This document shows positions 9,964 to 15,909 of a DNA stretch of 46,895 bases, one piece after another. The notes under the pieces were generated by a model. It made no database searches, had not been told where the DNA came from, and saw nothing but the letters and a program-made list of their open reading frames with translations. Position numbers and translations under genes: made by a program. The stretch's first letter is position 1; each line of letters starts with the position of its first letter. The stretch lies in the sequence record DRR378314_2487. One strand, 5' to 3'.

Positions 9964-12213
9964 ATGCAGGATAAGCAACTTTTAAAGTTATTAAAGCAAC
10001 AGCAAAAAATACTCTCGAAAATAGCGTTAGGGCAGCCTTTAAGTGAAATAAGTGAAGAGATCTGTTTAGCTATCGAGGAAATGCTAGAGGATGAGTCTGC
10101 CAAGTGCTCAATTTTATCGCTTCAGGGTAATCAACTGTTTCATTGTGCTGCCCCAAGTATTGATGCTAAGTATTGTCAAATAATCAACGGAATTGAAATT
10201 GGCCCTAAAGTAGGATCGTGTGGGACGGCAGCATTTTCAGAAGCAAGAATTATCGTTGATGACATTAACACATCGCCGTTGTGGGAAGGCTTTAAACAAA
10301 CGGCGCTAACCTTTGGACTAGCCTCATGTTGGTCAACCCCCATTATTTCTACTAAAGCTGAAGTGTTAGGGACATTTGCTGTCTATCATACCACTGCAAA
10401 AAGTCCTACAAAGCAAGATTTGGAGCTGATTGATCATTTTGTAAACTTTACCAGTATTGCGCTCGAAAATGACGCCAATGCAACTAAATTAAATGATGTT
10501 ATTAGTCAACTTAAGCACAGCAATGATAAATTTGAAGCGTTCACCCAAGTAATGCCTGATCTTGTTCTTATTTTGGGTGAAAATGGCGAGTATGTTGACG
10601 TATATGGTTCTTCAAATGAATTTTTATATTCTTCTTTACTGCAAAGTAAGGGAAAAAATGTCAATGATGTTTTAGATCCTAAAGATGCGCTACCAATTAT
10701 GGCGGTACTCGAGAAAACACTCGCGACAAATGAAGTTCAAGTGTTCGAATATGAGTTAGAAGTGCCCAAAGGAAAGGTGGTCTTTGAAGGGCGCACGGTA
10801 CCTGTGGATCATTATCAATCTAAGAGTAGTCAGTCTAGGCATGTTTTATGGGTTGCAAGAGATATCACACAAAGAAAAGAAGCAGAAAAAGCCGTAGAAA
10901 AGCTCGCCTATTATGACCCTTTAACAAAACTCCCAAACAGACGAATGTTAAATGAGCGCTTAAACATCGCTGTTGAAAAAATAAAGCGCTCAGGCGAAAC
11001 AGGAGCTTTACTATTCTTAGACATAGACGACTTTAAGCGCCTCAATGATTCATTAGGACATTCATCAGGAGATGAATTACTCATTGAAGTTGCCCGAAGA
11101 TTAGGTGCGGTTATAAGGAAATCAGATACATTAGCGCGGTTGGGAGGCGATGAGTTTGTTGTTTTATTAGAATATCTTGGTGACGATAATGACCAAGCCA
11201 ATGTGGAATCAGCCATTGTGGCGCAAAAGATCCACGAAGTTTTTGAGCAAGAGTTTAAAGTAGGGGCCTTAAAATTCCAGGTTAGTTGTAGTATTGGTAT
11301 TTGTTTAATTGAAGGCGCAGATATAACTGCGAGCAATATTCTAAAGTTTGCTGACACCGCTATGTATCGCTCAAAGGCGAAAGGTGGGAATAGCTATAGT
11401 TTTTATGATCCACAACTGCAGACATTATTAGATAGAAAGATAAAACTCGAAACAGAGATTTTAAAATCGATTGAGAATGATGAGTTTTGTGCTTACTTTC
11501 AGCCACAAATTAACAATGAAGGCAAGGTCGTGGGAGCCGAGGCGCTGATCCGTTGGATCCACCCGATTAATGGAATTATTGCGCCAAGTGAATTTATACC
11601 GGTTGCTGAGCAGTTTGGTTTAATACAACGTTTGCAAAATATAGTTCTTAGAGATATCTGTACATTACTTAAACGTTTAAACCCGTGTGTTATAGATGAT
11701 GACTTTAAGGTGTCGATTAATATAAGTGCTTCACAATTCAAGTCTTCTTTATTAAAGTCTGAGTTACTTCATGTGCTTAATTATCACCACCTTTCTCCGT
11801 CTAAAATAACCCTCGAAATTACTGAAAGTATGCTAACTCATGATGTTGAACATACAATACAGCAAATGAAAGAGCTCCAGTCAGAAGGGTTTACTTTTTC
11901 AATTGACGATTTTGGCACTGGATATTCTTGTTTAGCTTATTTACACGCTTACCCGGTAAAGCAGTTAAAAATAGATAAAAGCTTTATTGATAGAATATCC
12001 GATGAAGAATCAGGGTTTAGCATTGTAAAAACAATTATTGATTTAGCAAATAACTTGGGGATGGGTGTGGTTGCAGAAGGCGTTGAAAGCAAAGAGCAGC
12101 TTACTATCCTAAAAGGTTGTAATATTGACTCTACACAAGGTTTTTACTTTGCCAAACCTATGCCAATGAACGACTATTTAAATAGCCATAGTAAGAACTT
12201 TAAGCGTGACTGA
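9964..12213 (+). CDS. GAF-PAS-GGDEF-EAL c-di-GMP signalling protein
   Basis: GAF (GSCGTAAF, SCWSTPI), PAS, YDPLTKLPNR, RKSD I-site plus GGDEF, EAL, DDFGTGYS, AEGVE. Confidence 0.95.
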   Translation: MQDKQLLKLLKQQQKILSKIALGQPLSEISEEICLAIEEMLEDESAKCSILSLQGNQLFHCAAPSIDAKYCQIINGIEIGPKVGSCGTAAFSEARIIVDDINTSPLWEGFKQTALTFGLASCWSTPIISTKAEVLGTFAVYHTTAKSPTKQDLELIDHFVNFTSIALENDANATKLNDVISQLKHSNDKFEAFTQVMPDLVLILGENGEYVDVYGSSNEFLYSSLLQSKGKNVNDVLDPKDALPIMAVLEKTLATNEVQVFEYELEVPKGKVVFEGRTVPVDHYQSKSSQSRHVLWVARDITQRKEAEKAVEKLAYYDPLTKLPNRRMLNERLNIAVEKIKRSGETGALLFLDIDDFKRLNDSLGHSSGDELLIEVARRLGAVIRKSDTLARLGGDEFVVLLEYLGDDNDQANVESAIVAQKIHEVFEQEFKVGALKFQVSCSIGICLIEGADITASNILKFADTAMYRSKAKGGNSYSFYDPQLQTLLDRKIKLETEILKSIENDEFCAYFQPQINNEGKVVGAEALIRWIHPINGIIAPSEFIPVAEQFGLIQRLQNIVLRDICTLLKRLNPCVIDDDFKVSINISASQFKSSLLKSELLHVLNYHHLSPSKITLEITESMLTHDVEHTIQQMKELQSEGFTFSIDDFGTGYSCLAYLHAYPVKQLKIDKSFIDRISDEESGFSIVKTIIDLANNLGMGVVAEGVESKEQLTILKGCNIDSTQGFYFAKPMPMNDYLNSHSKNFKRD

Positions 12214-12276
12214 GCATAAAGTTAACTATGTTTAAAAATACTCACTTGCTAGGTTTAAATAGTAACATATTGTTGT

Positions 12277-12305
12277 GTATGCTGGTTATAGGTTAACCAG
12301 CATAC
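12277..12305. terminator. 12-bp perfect stem-loop between convergent genes
   Basis: GTATGCTGGTTA-5 nt-TAACCAGCATAC. Confidence 0.6.
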
Positions 12306-12316
12306 TAGTTTGTGAT

Positions 12317-14284
12317 TTAATCGTTAAACTTGATACGAATGCCAGCATTGACAGTAAAACCATCGTTTCGAGACCAAATATCAGTTGTCCAACGACCACT
12401 CGATGCTTGTTGTGGCAATATGAGAGAGTCTTCTTTTGTTTGTCTTACATTGAGTAGATTCTCAGCATTAACAAAATAGCTAATCCGTCCAACGGTAATT
12501 TGCCCAAGTAAACCGAAGTGCCAGTAAGCATCACTTTTATCTCTGTAAGGGTTATTCTCAAGCTGTTGTGTGCCGGTGTAGTAGGCTTCAAAACCAACTA
12601 AGTGGCTACCGTGCTCTTCCCACATAATTACTGCACCCGCTGAGTGTTCTGGGGTGAGAGTAAGCGGTACGCGACCTGTTCCTGAGTTAATTTGCTTACT
12701 TGCATCTGTATATAAATAACTACCCGTTAACTTGATATCATTCCAGCGATAGCGCAATAGAAATTTTGCACCACGTATTTCACTTTAGCCTTGGGCGTTG
12801 ACGATGCGAACGTTTTTACCTGATGGCGTGAGTTGCTGGTTGATGACTTCTAACTCAGTGACATTTTCAACATCGGAGGAGAAAAAAGTAACACTTGTTT
12901 CAACGCTATCAAATGTATAGCTGATATCGATAGAGGCTGTGTTTGCATGTTCCTCTTCAATATTTTCGAGCGGCTCTAAATGGGATAAACCTGCATCTTC
13001 AATGTCTTCAATAAATGGAGTGGGGGCGAAAAACCCTTTACCGTACGAGCCTCTTACGGTCCAGTTTTCTGGTTTATACAGCATGGAAATTCGCGGACTA
13101 AATTGCGTGCCGTATTCATTGTGCCAGTCGGCACGTGCACTCAACGACAACGATATATTTTCGCTGGCTTCATAATCAAGCTGTGAAAAAACGCCCGGCA
13201 CTTCGTAGTGATAATCAAATGCAGCAAAGTCTTCTGATTGGTATTTTTCAGATTGATACGCAGCACCGACTAGCCATGCGATGTTGTCGGTATAACCAGA
13301 GATACTTGACTCTAATAAGTAACTCTCATGGTTGTCATTTTCGTTTATAGTACCATATAGGTGATCATGATCTTGCTGCATTGCAGAACCACGTACATTT
13401 AAGGCCAGTACTTCATTTATTGGTTTATCAAATATAAACCCCGTATCAAGCCTTAAGCTGTCTTGTGTTTGTGCAAATGGATTGCCATCTGGCATTATTG
13501 CGTTTTCAGCTGTGCCGCCATCTCTTTGCTCGGTCATCGCGCCTACCGTGACGTATAAATTGGCGCCATTATCGCCTTCCCAATAAACACGGGGGCGTAC
13601 ACTTGCTCTGTTATAGCTTGCCATATCAAGCCAGCCATCATCATCTAAGTCTTGCTCCTGTTGATGATGAAGCCCTGCGGTAACAGAGGCGCTGATAGAG
13701 TTAGTTAACGGTGCCGCAAAGTAAGAGGTAACATCTTGGCCATTTTTTGAGGTGGCATTGAGAAGAAGTTCGCCTTCAAACTCATCGCTCGGTGTACGTG
13801 AAATCAAATTGATCACTCCACCTAACGCAGAGCCTCCATATAATGAAGAGGCAGAGCCTTTAATGATCTCAACATTGGCAAGATCAGTCGGCGGGATTTG
13901 TAATAAGCCTATTGATTGACCGCCATATAATGGCAGTCCGTCACTCAGTAGCTGGGTATAGCGGCCATATAGGCTTTGCAAACGGATATTTGCACTACCT
14001 AAAGCGGGTGAAGTGTTTTGCACGCGCACTCCACCAGTTTCTGCCACTAACATTGAAATGTTGCCAGGGCGCATTAAGGCTTTCTCGTGTATTTCTTCAC
14101 TATTGATTATTTCAGTGCGAGTTGCTGACTCGGTAACAATTCGACCAAGGCGAGAAGCCGTGACTTGTATTTTCTCTATCGATTTTTTTTCATGTTCGTC
14201 ATGGTCATGATGCTGTTCATGGGCGAACGAATAAGCAGGGAATAACGCAGCAGCAACAGCTAGCTTGGATGTTTTTATAAACAT
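12317..14284 (-). pseudogene. TonB-dependent receptor (His-rich N-terminus, probable metal uptake) interrupted by an in-frame TAA at 12785-12787
   Basis: Signal peptide, HEQHHDHDEHE, TonB box IEKIQVTA, plug motif VEIIKGSASSLYGGSALGGVINLI. ORFs 12785-14284 and 12317-12757 share one frame and read NAQG*SEIRGAKFLLRYRW. C-terminus has VNAENLLN...AGIRIKF. Confidence 0.88.
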
Positions 14285-14355
14285 ATTTGTCTCATAATTG
14301 TATTAAAGTAGAGCGAATTAGCCCTCAACGTGGCTAAAAAATATGGGAACTGTAT

Positions 14356-14718
14356 TTATGAGATAGAGATAGGAGGGCGGAATACATGAGTCGGCATCAA
14401 AACTTTTCGTTCGACGTGTTGGTTTATAACATTAGACTTTTGCACAACAAGGGCAGTTGCATTTGCTTGACTAGGTAAATAAAAGGCCGACACACATGTG
14501 TTTGCAGGGCAAATACAAGTGACTTCACAGCACTCGGTATCGCAACATTCATCTTCACTTTGGGCTTGCTCATCGGTGAGGATATAATCTGTTGCTGATG
14601 ATTGTTGAGAATGCGATGCAGTATTTGTAGGCAGATTAGCACTGTACGCCATCGTTTGGCCAAAAAAGCTTAGCAAAATAAATAATATTGCCAACAAATT
14701 TGAAAATGGCTTAGGCAT
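14356..14718 (-). CDS. Cys-rich exported leader protein with C-terminal RPP motif (DUF2946/CruR/CopL-like)
   Basis: ATG 14718 with GAG upstream; hydrophobic N-terminus; DECCDTECCEVTCICPANTC; ends HVFRPPISIS; 71 nt upstream of the TBDR. Confidence 0.72.
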   Translation of the reverse strand: MPKPFSNLLAILFILLSFFGQTMAYSANLPTNTASHSQQSSATDYILTDEQAQSEDECCDTECCEVTCICPANTCVSAFYLPSQANATALVVQKSNVINQHVERKVLMPTHVFRPPISIS

Positions 14719-14895
14719 ATTAATCTCAAGTACAAATAGTATGTGTAGTATATTGAATCTTAGGTGCTTTGTGAATATCAATGACGAGATAGCTGGGCCC
14801 AAATGTTTTCTTTAAAAAGTGTAAAGCCGTTACCCGTACAATAAAATAAAGCATGGTGCGCTTTTAACACATAAATAAGTGGATGCTGTTTTTGA

Positions 14896-15909
14896 ATGAG
14901 CTATTTTAAAAATCTAATAACAAAATTTATTATAATGATGCAACAACGGCCCGGTTTGTTGGCTGTATTTGCGTTTTGCAGCGGTGTGGCAAGCTACCTT
15001 TTAGTTGAGCGAAAGGAGTCGTTTTCGCAAATTATTGCCATACTTTTACTGATCAGCTGGGTTTGGTTGATTGTGGATAATTGGCTGCGCGATAAAGTAG
15101 AGCAACGCTTTGGCGTGGCTGTTTCACCTAACTTTATGCGTTTTGCATTACAGATGGTGCAGCAAGAAAGTTTATTTTTTGCCTTGCCGTTTTTTCTCGC
15201 TGTGACTTCGTGGAATCATCCGCAGGCTGTTTTTACATCGCTAATTATACTTTGTGCATTTATTTCAGTTGTTGATCCGCTTTATTATAAAAAGTTAGCG
15301 AAACACAGCATTTTGTTTACTATCTTTCATAACTTTGCACTGTTTGTTGTTATTCTCGTTACTCTACCTATTTTACTTAATCTCACCACCAGTCAAAGCT
15401 TAACAATAGCATTGATCACCTCAGTTATTTGTACACTGCCAAGCTTAGGTAATTTAATGCCAAATGCTCGCTGGTGGCGTTTTCCTTTGCTCGTTTTATT
15501 ATTGAGTGCGCTTAGCGCGGGTTTATGGCAGCTACGCAGCTGGGTACCGCCAGCGGCGCTGCGCTTAACTGATATTACGGTATCCCACCAAGTCGATATT
15601 GCACAACGCAAGCCCATCGGTAACGTTAAGCAGTTAGATGTAAATACGTTACGACAGGAAGGTTTGTATAGTTGGACAGCGGTGAAAGCGCCAAGAGGTT
15701 TAAACGAAAAGATTTTTCATGTTTGGATCCTTAATAACCAAGTCGTAGAGCGAATCGCATTAGATATTACAGGCGGGCGGGAGCAAGGTTATAGAGCGTG
15801 GACCCACAAAATGAACTTTCCCGTAGACTCAGTTGGGAAATGGCAAGTACACGTTGTCACTGAATCAGGACAATTGATAGGACTCGCTAAATTTAATGTT
15901 AGTCTATAA
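14896..15909 (+). CDS. DUF5924/DUF2914-type membrane protein
   Basis: Multiple TM helices, QESLFFALPFF, WVPPA, C-terminal AVKAPRGL...GGREQGYRAWTHK...GKWQVHV. Confidence 0.8.
   Translation: MSYFKNLITKFIIMMQQRPGLLAVFAFCSGVASYLLVERKESFSQIIAILLLISWVWLIVDNWLRDKVEQRFGVAVSPNFMRFALQMVQQESLFFALPFFLAVTSWNHPQAVFTSLIILCAFISVVDPLYYKKLAKHSILFTIFHNFALFVVILVTLPILLNLTTSQSLTIALITSVICTLPSLGNLMPNARWWRFPLLVLLLSALSAGLWQLRSWVPPAALRLTDITVSHQVDIAQRKPIGNVKQLDVNTLRQEGLYSWTAVKAPRGLNEKIFHVWILNNQVVERIALDITGGREQGYRAWTHKMNFPVDSVGKWQVHVVTESGQLIGLAKFNVSL

Follow-up and report, generated by a model that had tools for sequence, protein, structure and literature searches.

The window studied here is the whole stretch of 46,895 nucleotides (nt) of sequence record DRR378314_2487. 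On its minus strand an open reading frame (ORF) of 120 amino acids (aa) runs from an ATG at 14718 to a TAA at 14358-14356, and the ATG of a TonB-dependent receptor (TBDR) follows on the same strand at 14284, 71 nt downstream of that stop. We propose, with a probability of about 0.62, that the small ORF serves as a regulatory leader acting in cis, like CutF, CruR and CopL, in which a metal-sensing stall of the ribosome would control the TBDR. The following features are needed for the argument, with SD standing for Shine-Dalgarno and bp for base pairs.

14356..14718, minus strand: leader ORF, encoding a CopL-like/CutF-like, Cys-rich peptide predicted to be exported (translation; family of 144 cluster representatives).
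14647..14718, minus strand: codons of the predicted signal peptide, residues about 1-24 (sequence features; AlphaFold2 helix 4-27; Q21 conserved).
14494..14547, minus strand: seven-Cys cluster CCx3CCx3CxCx4C, residues 58-75, presumed metal-binding sensor (Cys conservation, TBDR-linked form).
14371..14379, minus strand: codons of Arg114-Pro115-Pro116, presumed ribosome-arrest site (motif conservation, fixed distance to the last Cys).
14355..14364, minus strand: tail codons Ile119-Ser120, the stop and one further base (AUCUCAUAAA), the anti-SD arm (8-bp duplex, -8.6 kcal/mol).
14290..14297, minus strand: UUAUGAGA, the SD-like GAGA of the receptor with its flank, partner of the tail arm in the duplex.
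12317..14284, minus strand: TBDR with Plug and TonB beta-barrel domains; His-rich stretch at the N-terminus and in-frame TAA at 12785-12787.

The N-terminus of the leader resembles a Sec signal peptide, with Lys3, a hydrophobic core at residues 8-20 and then TMA/YS; its n-, h- and c-regions are typical, as judged by inspection and without a signal-peptide predictor. A polar, acidic linker separates it from the acidic seven-Cys cluster EDECCDTECCEVTCICPANTC (residues 55-75), whose core CCDTECCEVTCICPANTC (residues 58-75) holds all seven Cys. Between Cys75 and Arg114 there are 38 Cys-free residues, which gives a distance of 39 from the last Cys to the Arg, and the protein ends with FRPP at 113-116, then ISIS and the stop. 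The original prediction, made from this sequence, had described the same architecture (a 120-aa ORF with a signal-like N-terminus, an acidic seven-Cys cluster and FRPP four residues from its end, with a TBDR beginning 71 nt further on along the same strand), and it is borne out by the translation and by the Plug and TonB beta-barrel domains encoded behind the ATG at 14284. Its spacer of about 32 residues was a miscount, and it missed the in-frame TAA that interrupts the receptor at 12787-12785.

An exhaustive HMMER search (E<=1e-3) gave a family of 144 representatives of clusters at 50% identity, 143 of them retrievable, where a word-indexed search had given only 4 relatives of the leader. The motif [RK]PP was found near the C-terminus in 140 of these 143. 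Motif counts were made on 140 proteins, after dropping P0006 (a frameshifted fragment of 93 aa), P0014 (2058 aa) and P0130 (truncated). Pro-Pro is present in all 140, preceded by Arg in 138 and by Lys in the other 2; an aromatic residue (Tyr or Phe) stands before this position in 137/140, Ile comes directly after Pro-Pro in 137/140, and the string [FY]RPPI is near invariant. From Pro-Pro to the end of the protein there are 3-4 residues in 124/140. The distance from the last Cys to the Arg is exactly 39 in 121/140, and most of the exceptions have an extra Cys within the spacer. In the family alignment of 141 rows, C63, C64, C68, C70, P115 and P116 are invariant, and Q21, C75, R114 and I117 are conserved to at least 90%. 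Across 57 distinct loci the R-P-P codons comprise five Arg codons and all four Pro codons; this synonymous variation therefore points to selection on the peptide. The reading of the leader as a spurious ORF was rejected because of its conservation.

The linker before the Cys cluster is hypervariable across the family, and within the genus the leader peptide is conserved along its full length. The family occurs in 31 of the 37 sampled genomes of the genus, often as 2-3 paralogues, and in the order it was found in 95/301 genomes and 30/92 genera. The sole relative with a source name is P0005, a 'hypothetical protein' of Pseudoalteromonas; a tblastn search of 72,556 plasmid records with the leader found nothing at 1e-3. 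In the dropped protein of 2058 aa, the Cys-cluster part of the leader (query residues 60-103) was matched in 8 separate stretches (E 2.1e-14), and this may be a repeat protein built of similar Cys-rich units. The strings FRPPI and RPPIF were also looked for in the literature; among the matches listed there were proline-rich and other antimicrobial peptides, and none on leader peptides. The ribosome is the target of some proline-rich antimicrobial peptides, and we take this likeness as only a lead.

Taking into account the genes that follow the leaders, we extracted 60 distinct leaders from their loci, 57 of them with a downstream ORF, which was assigned by Pfam; the window and L001 are near-identical loci. 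The downstream gene is on the same strand in 57/57. It is a TBDR (Plug) in 20, DUF411, which we take to be a CopG-like family, in 20, OEP in 15, a multicopper oxidase in 1 and a CusB-CusF fusion in 1. The original prediction had proposed to survey homologues for a conserved RPP, for its spacing from the Cys cluster and for metal genes downstream; all three are found, the last as 20 TBDRs and 37 copper-linked genes. In the longer loci, cusB- and cusA-like genes (judged by their N-terminal sequence only) follow the DUF411 and OEP genes.

The number of Cys in the cluster follows the downstream gene. The 7-Cys form, with a linker poor in Met/His (0-6 in 35 residues), is seen in 20/20 TBDR-linked leaders and in 0/37 of the others, and the 5-Cys form, with a linker that is mostly Met/His-rich (7-13, with three exceptions), in 37/37 leaders linked to efflux or detoxification. 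Receptor-type and efflux-type leaders coexist in one genome, because G001, the genome nearest to the window, has one of each; its second leader, L022 (C3:69877-70242), is of the 5-Cys, Met/His-rich form and lies before an OEP (cusC-like) gene, behind which come cusB- and cusA-like genes. The divergent neighbour of the leader in the window (14896-15909, plus strand) encodes a protein with DUF5924 and DUF2914. It is not conserved beside 18 other TBDR-type leader modules, and for this reason the leader-receptor pair appears to move as a self-contained two-gene unit.

In the receptor, codon 500 is the in-frame TAA, the same frame continues to 12317, and both parts keep TBDR domains. In G001, whose leader is 98% identical, the DNA alignment has CAA (Gln) at this position and the protein is intact, with 655 aa; the TAA of the window reflects either a nonsense mutation of recent date or an error in the assembly. 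All receptors behind TBDR-type leaders (20/20) start with a His-rich stretch. In the window this stretch is HEQHHDHDEHEKK (14183-14221, minus strand), located directly after the signal peptide and before the TonB-box region. This puts it in the N-terminal extension on the periplasmic side, an unusual position among TBDRs; it is also seen in loci L002-L055. None of the NCBIfam TBDR models matched the receptor at cut-off, and TIGR01778 (copper receptor) was not among the matches. A sequence search of the PDB with the receptor gave generic TBDRs only, for example CirA and PirA.

The tail of the leader is complementary, in the RNA, to the ribosome binding site (RBS) of the receptor. In the window, the last two sense codons and the stop (AUCUCAUAA) pair with UUAUGAGA, which carries the GAGA of the receptor SD. 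The energy of this duplex of 8 bp, -8.6 kcal/mol, was equalled by 2 of 300 shuffled arms (p=0.007), and it ranks 3/104 among leader-ORF windows. Over the TBDR-type loci the mean duplex energy was -10.3 kcal/mol versus -5.4 kcal/mol for shuffled arms, with p<=0.05 in 12/19 loci, and in many loci the minimum free energy folds had the tail codons paired with the downstream SD and start. The pattern is stronger in relatives: there AUUUUUACCUC, encoding Ile-Phe-Thr-Ser, is the exact complement of GAGGUAAAAAU, a stretch made up of the receptor's SD, spacer and start. Among DUF411-type loci, AUUUUUGCC is found opposite GGCAAAAAU. It was also possible to see matched changes on the two sides, ACCUC/GAGGU being replaced by AUCUC/GAGAU in L003 and in the window, with further matched pairs ACCUU/AAGGU in L042 and UUCGCC/GGCGAA in L048. 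When a ten-pair helix was scored on 17 TBDR-type sequences, 88.2% of the 170 cells paired, a value reached by 0/500 shuffles, and sliding the partner by 1-3 columns as a control gave 46.8-63.3% pairing. Compensatory CG-to-UA changes are present at two pairs of the tail-RBS helix.

The effect of a stalled ribosome on this pairing was modelled by blocking a footprint of 28 nt, the P site being set on the first Pro codon, and recomputing the partition function. The RBS was taken as -14 to +3 of the downstream start and 0.15 was used as the threshold for a gain in unpaired probability. With the modelled ribosome at RPP, the mean unpaired probability of the RBS in TBDR-type loci rose from 0.29 to 0.48, and the gain was at least 0.15 in 12/18 loci. 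A control footprint placed 15 codons upstream gave such a gain in 1/18. Among the DUF411-type loci, 5/19 gained under the modelled stall.

With Rfam, nothing was found at gathering score in the window, and there were chance-level matches only in nine related loci. In 27 related loci, belonging to all three operon types, the leader stop is followed within a few bases by a conserved motif, AGGRTTAGTGCGYCYAAAATTT, for example at L014:1450-1494(-), L024:4581-4625(-) and L068:1462-1506(-); it was not seen in the window. In 19/27 loci it forms a weak hairpin whose stem varies and whose loop holds the A/U-rich stretch. No consensus structure was predicted by RNAalifold for the 45 nt that follow the leader stop in the 27 loci, and the motif has no Rfam match.

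The transcriptional context of the two genes is given by three further features.

14747..14775, minus strand: promoter-like site before the leader, TTCACA-17 nt-TATACT (10/12 positions, the closest fit to a sigma-70 promoter in 12200-14950).
14285..14355, minus strand: intergenic region of 71 nt between leader and receptor (no terminator-like hairpin, no Rfam family).
12277..12305, no strand assigned: terminator-like palindrome between the receptor and a convergent GGDEF/EAL gene.

Leader and receptor fit a two-gene unit, since a promoter-like site lies before the leader and a terminator-like palindrome after the receptor, with nothing terminator-like between the two genes. By eye, TTCACA...TAnAnT is seen at equal distance upstream of TBDR-type leaders in other genomes. 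A longer frame of 148 aa, starting from a TTG (14802), is unlikely to be the gene: the promoter-like site falls within the extension, and distant homologues align from the ATG. Contigs of the marine metatranscriptome library X4 span 14254-14723 and parts of the receptor, with 90-99% identity; since contigs of an RNA library may hold DNA, they give no inference on expression or co-transcription.

Among the known systems closest to the leader is CutF from Rhodobacter capsulatus (cutFOG), which is described as stalling at a C-terminal Pro motif and melting a stem-loop that hides the cutO SD (PMC9973294; bioRxiv 10.1101/2025.02.05.636593). CutF has Cys45 and a PPP at about 114-116. In the survey of CutF-like proteins (Ozturk et al. 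2023, PMC9973294) the filters ask for fewer than 150 aa, a signal peptide, PP in the C-terminal 15 residues and a neighbour on the same strand at less than 1000 nt; its CutF-like set (list D) was recruited by iterative jackhmmer from cutO-linked CutF seeds, and OEP/Cus (OEP/ACR_tran/HlyD_D23) and TonB-like neighbours are listed, with CopL in the network. The leader passes the length, PP and neighbour filters (120 aa, PP at 115-116, TBDR at 71 nt) and, with a signal peptide predicted from sequence features, would fit this rule-based definition. Like CutF, it would be a small Sec-exported peptide with a Cys motif, a C-terminal Pro motif separated from the stop by a few codons, and a short intergenic region behind it; in both, the SD of the next gene would be hidden by an RNA pairing that a ribosome stalling on the Pro motif could reach, and Cus and TonB-like genes are among the neighbours. 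The differences lie in the stall motif ([FY]RPPI instead of PPP), the sensor (a 7-Cys cluster instead of CxxxC), the distance from Cys to arrest motif (39 instead of about 70) and the target (a TBDR instead of a multicopper oxidase). The anti-SD arm, moreover, is formed by the leader's own last codons, whereas CutF has a separate intergenic stem-loop.

CruR of Bordetella pertussis (Bp2923, DUF2946) is reported to combine CXXC with arrest at RAPP and to control a TBDR by copper through Rho-dependent termination (Roy et al. 2022, PMC9426467); there, C93 and R139 are 46 residues apart, and the spacer to the TBDR is of 162 nt and GC-rich (PMC9426467). For the CruR peptide, too, no fold is reported. 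Like CruR, the leader lies directly upstream of a TBDR, is predicted to be exported and poorly structured, and keeps a Cys motif at a conserved distance from a motif containing Arg-Pro-Pro, 3-4 residues before the stop. Unlike CruR, it has neither CXXC nor RAPP, and its spacer is of 71 nt instead of 162 nt. The cluster CCx3CCx3CxCx4C has no CxxC spacing, which is conserved in DUF2946, and the C-terminal motif is FRPPI ([FY]RPPI in 137/140 relatives). Pfam gave no match on the leader at E<=0.01 or at E<=1, DUF2946 (PF11162) included. On the 141 relatives, PF11162 gave 9 weak matches (best E 8.7e-4), and it was not found in G001. In hhalign, the leader family against three bona fide DUF2946 proteins gave a probability of 0.66%, which with 3 sequences is a weak test. 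A conserved distance from Cys to arrest motif is common to both, 39 in the leader and 44-48 in the three DUF2946 proteins.

The sole library model that detects the family is CopL_fam of NCBIfam (NF033807). It matches the leader with 29.2 bits (E 1.1e-6), below its cut-off of 40 bits, residues 32-117 aligning with positions 46-128 of the 129 of the profile, and it matches 122/141 relatives at E<=0.01. Homology to CopL is likely, but the score is too low for curated membership of CopL_fam. None of 201 sampled genomes of the class reached the cut-off of this model, and sub-threshold matches in other Gammaproteobacteria also end in [FY]RPPI. CopL of Xanthomonas and Stenotrophomonas (copLAB) acts in cis from an upstream position and is required if the gene behind it is to be expressed under copper control; unlike the leader, it precedes copA/copB and not a TBDR.

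ApdA, ApdP and SecM are described as peptides with RAPP-type arrest, with the core R-[A/G]-P-P, RAPG or RAGP and with Sec/YidC components as targets (PMC10951233; PMC12992588), and an RxPP in which x is Pro is given as only partly active (Morici et al. 2024, PMC10951233; Fujiwara et al. 2025, PMC12992588). The leader shares with them an Arg, essential in these peptides, close to Pro-Pro near the C-terminus and the arrangement of a small, predicted exported protein upstream of the regulated gene; unlike them, it has the Arg directly before Pro-Pro and a near-invariant Ile after. Because the motif is R-P-P-I and not R-A/G-P-P, and the protein lies outside Pfam DUF2946, RAPP-type stalling chemistry cannot be assumed. 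The account of the literature in the original prediction is right (CruR as a DUF2946 protein with CXXC and RAPP and a copper-controlled TBDR; RAPP motifs as ribosome arresters). What it regarded as an uncharacterised variant is of a kind already charted, through the sub-cut-off match to CopL_fam and the published CutF-like definition.

We propose the following mechanism. Leader and TBDR would be co-transcribed from one promoter, and the signal peptide would target the nascent leader to Sec. With Arg114-Pro115-Pro116(-Ile117) at the peptidyl-transferase centre the ribosome would pause four codons before the stop, and during the pause the Cys cluster, 39-57 residues back, would be at or just past the tunnel exit. 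The capacity of the exit tunnel is commonly quoted as 30-40 residues. With Pro115/116 at the peptidyl-transferase centre, Cys75 would thus be near the tunnel exit and Cys58/59, about 57 residues out, probably inside or just past the docked translocon; the Met/His-rich stretch of the efflux-type leaders, further out, could already be periplasmic. The paused ribosome would cover the last leader codons, otherwise paired with the receptor SD, and the receptor start would be free only during the stall. Metal on the Cys cluster would alter the duration of the stall and so set the synthesis of the receptor. Folding of a small zinc-finger domain on its metal is reported to release an arrest. Such metal-dependent folding in the exit tunnel has been studied by nascent-chain force measurements (PMC4571824).

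The family, its invariant motif, the fixed spacing, the neighbourhoods and the complementarity of tail and RBS were computed, and from there on we infer the stall, the metal and the direction of the response. The sensed metal would most likely be copper, because paralogous leaders head cus, copG and multicopper-oxidase genes. As for direction, a metal that prolongs the stall, as with CutF, would turn the receptor on, and one that relieves it, as with CruR, would turn it off; the two appear about equally likely.

Several observations weigh against a leader that acts in this way. The motif R-P-P-I, a putative arrest site, has no residue between R and PP, and its register of Arg to Pro differs from that of the structurally studied RAPP-like modules. 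In the window the effect is modest, with a duplex of 8 bp and an unpaired probability of the RBS that goes from 0.42 to 0.54, below the threshold of 0.15 for a gain. Of the OEP (Cus-type) loci, 0/16 gained under the modelled stall, and four TBDR-type loci of another genus (L049, L050, L053, L055) are without good tail-RBS pairing. Covariation is thin, at 2 pairs (3 cells), its score being reached by 25/500 shuffles, and a conserved Ile-Phe-Thr-Ser peptide meeting an ordinary A-rich RBS could explain part of the complementarity. The genomes sampled are related, so they are not independent samples. No copper-receptor model is matched by the receptor above cut-off, so copper is only a candidate, and in this strain the regulated receptor carries a nonsense codon. 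Unmasking of the RBS by the tail is well supported for the TBDR subfamily and modest at this locus; because the OEP-type leaders show no gain and the four TBDR-type loci are unpaired, it is not universal in the family.

Considering the modest effect on the RBS in the window, a CruR-type attenuation has to be weighed, in which the stall at RPP would keep Rho off and its release would let Rho terminate before the receptor, the pairing of tail and RBS being secondary. CruR, given as the only characterised leader before a TBDR, works in this way (PMC9426467), and the spacing of 39 in the leader is nearer to the DUF2946 examples (44-48; CruR 46) than to CutF. However, the spacer of 71 nt, compared with 162 nt in B. 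pertussis, is AT-rich (C 14 and G 10 of 71 nt) and has no obvious C-rich rut site, and the complementarity of tail and RBS over the TBDR-type loci needs no Rho. We regard attenuation by Rho as unlikely; it may also combine with the unmasking of the RBS.

A somewhat poorer candidate is a mature periplasmic protein that would act in trans, as a metal-binding protein or chaperone feeding the His-rich receptor or as a buffer, with RPPI as a recognition or degradation tag. The predicted export of the leader, its seven Cys, the NCBIfam name of the related family ('metal-binding regulatory protein') and the conservation of the peptide over its whole length within the genus speak for such a protein. 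AlphaFold2, however, run on the alignment of 141 sequences, predicted no fold (predicted local distance difference test, pLDDT, 67.5; predicted template modelling score, pTM, 0.27), with the helix 4-27 as sole secondary structure, and the linker before the Cys cluster is hypervariable. This lack of a predicted fold would fit a nascent-chain sensor better than a stable protein. A ruler of 39 residues to a motif 3-4 codons from the stop, together with a tail complementary to the next RBS, would also be unexpected of a soluble chaperone.

It is very improbable that the leader is the precursor of a ribosomally made, Cys-rich metallophore or bacteriocin whose product is imported by the adjacent receptor: it would be a small secreted Cys-rich peptide adjoining a TBDR, and 8/141 relatives match the Conotoxin Pfam weakly, which reflects the Cys pattern only, but the module consists of leader and receptor alone and lacks genes for modification, export and immunity, the divergent neighbour does not recur at 18 other TBDR-type loci, and the same family heads efflux pumps and oxidases, which would be senseless for a metallophore precursor.

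For the leader as a regulator that stalls in cis, the design is already known from CutF, CruR and CopL, and the principle is not new. The metal-sensing arrest leaders CutF and CruR were described only in 2022-2025, and in these accounts copper acts in opposite ways, lengthening the stall of CutF and relieving that of CruR. The leader family is a widespread branch of this kind, present in 95/301 genomes of the order and unrecognised by Pfam. Distinctive in it are the putative arrest motif [FY]RPPI, the exact Cys-Arg ruler of 39 residues and the last codons that double as anti-SD arm. The ORFs of the family are mostly unnamed, and it is possible to label them as regulatory leaders.

The main value lies in the 7-Cys receptor-linked and 5-Cys efflux-linked paralogues, which are found side by side in the same cells. 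We suggest, tentatively, that the two forms share the RPPI arrest module and the 39-residue ruler and yet respond to metal with opposite sign, import being turned off and export on. The efflux form has a periplasmic Met/His-rich 'antenna', and here the stall would be prolonged by Cu(I) of the periplasm holding on to the chain. In the receptor form, which has no antenna, metal would make the enlarged Cys knot fold as it leaves the tunnel, and this folding, by pulling on the chain, would bring the stall to an end. Pseudoalteromonas-like marine bacteria would be convenient for swapping sensors, spacers and tails between import and export leaders. If the opposite sign is true, the two forms would be a natural matched pair for resolving the unexplained difference in polarity between CutF and CruR.

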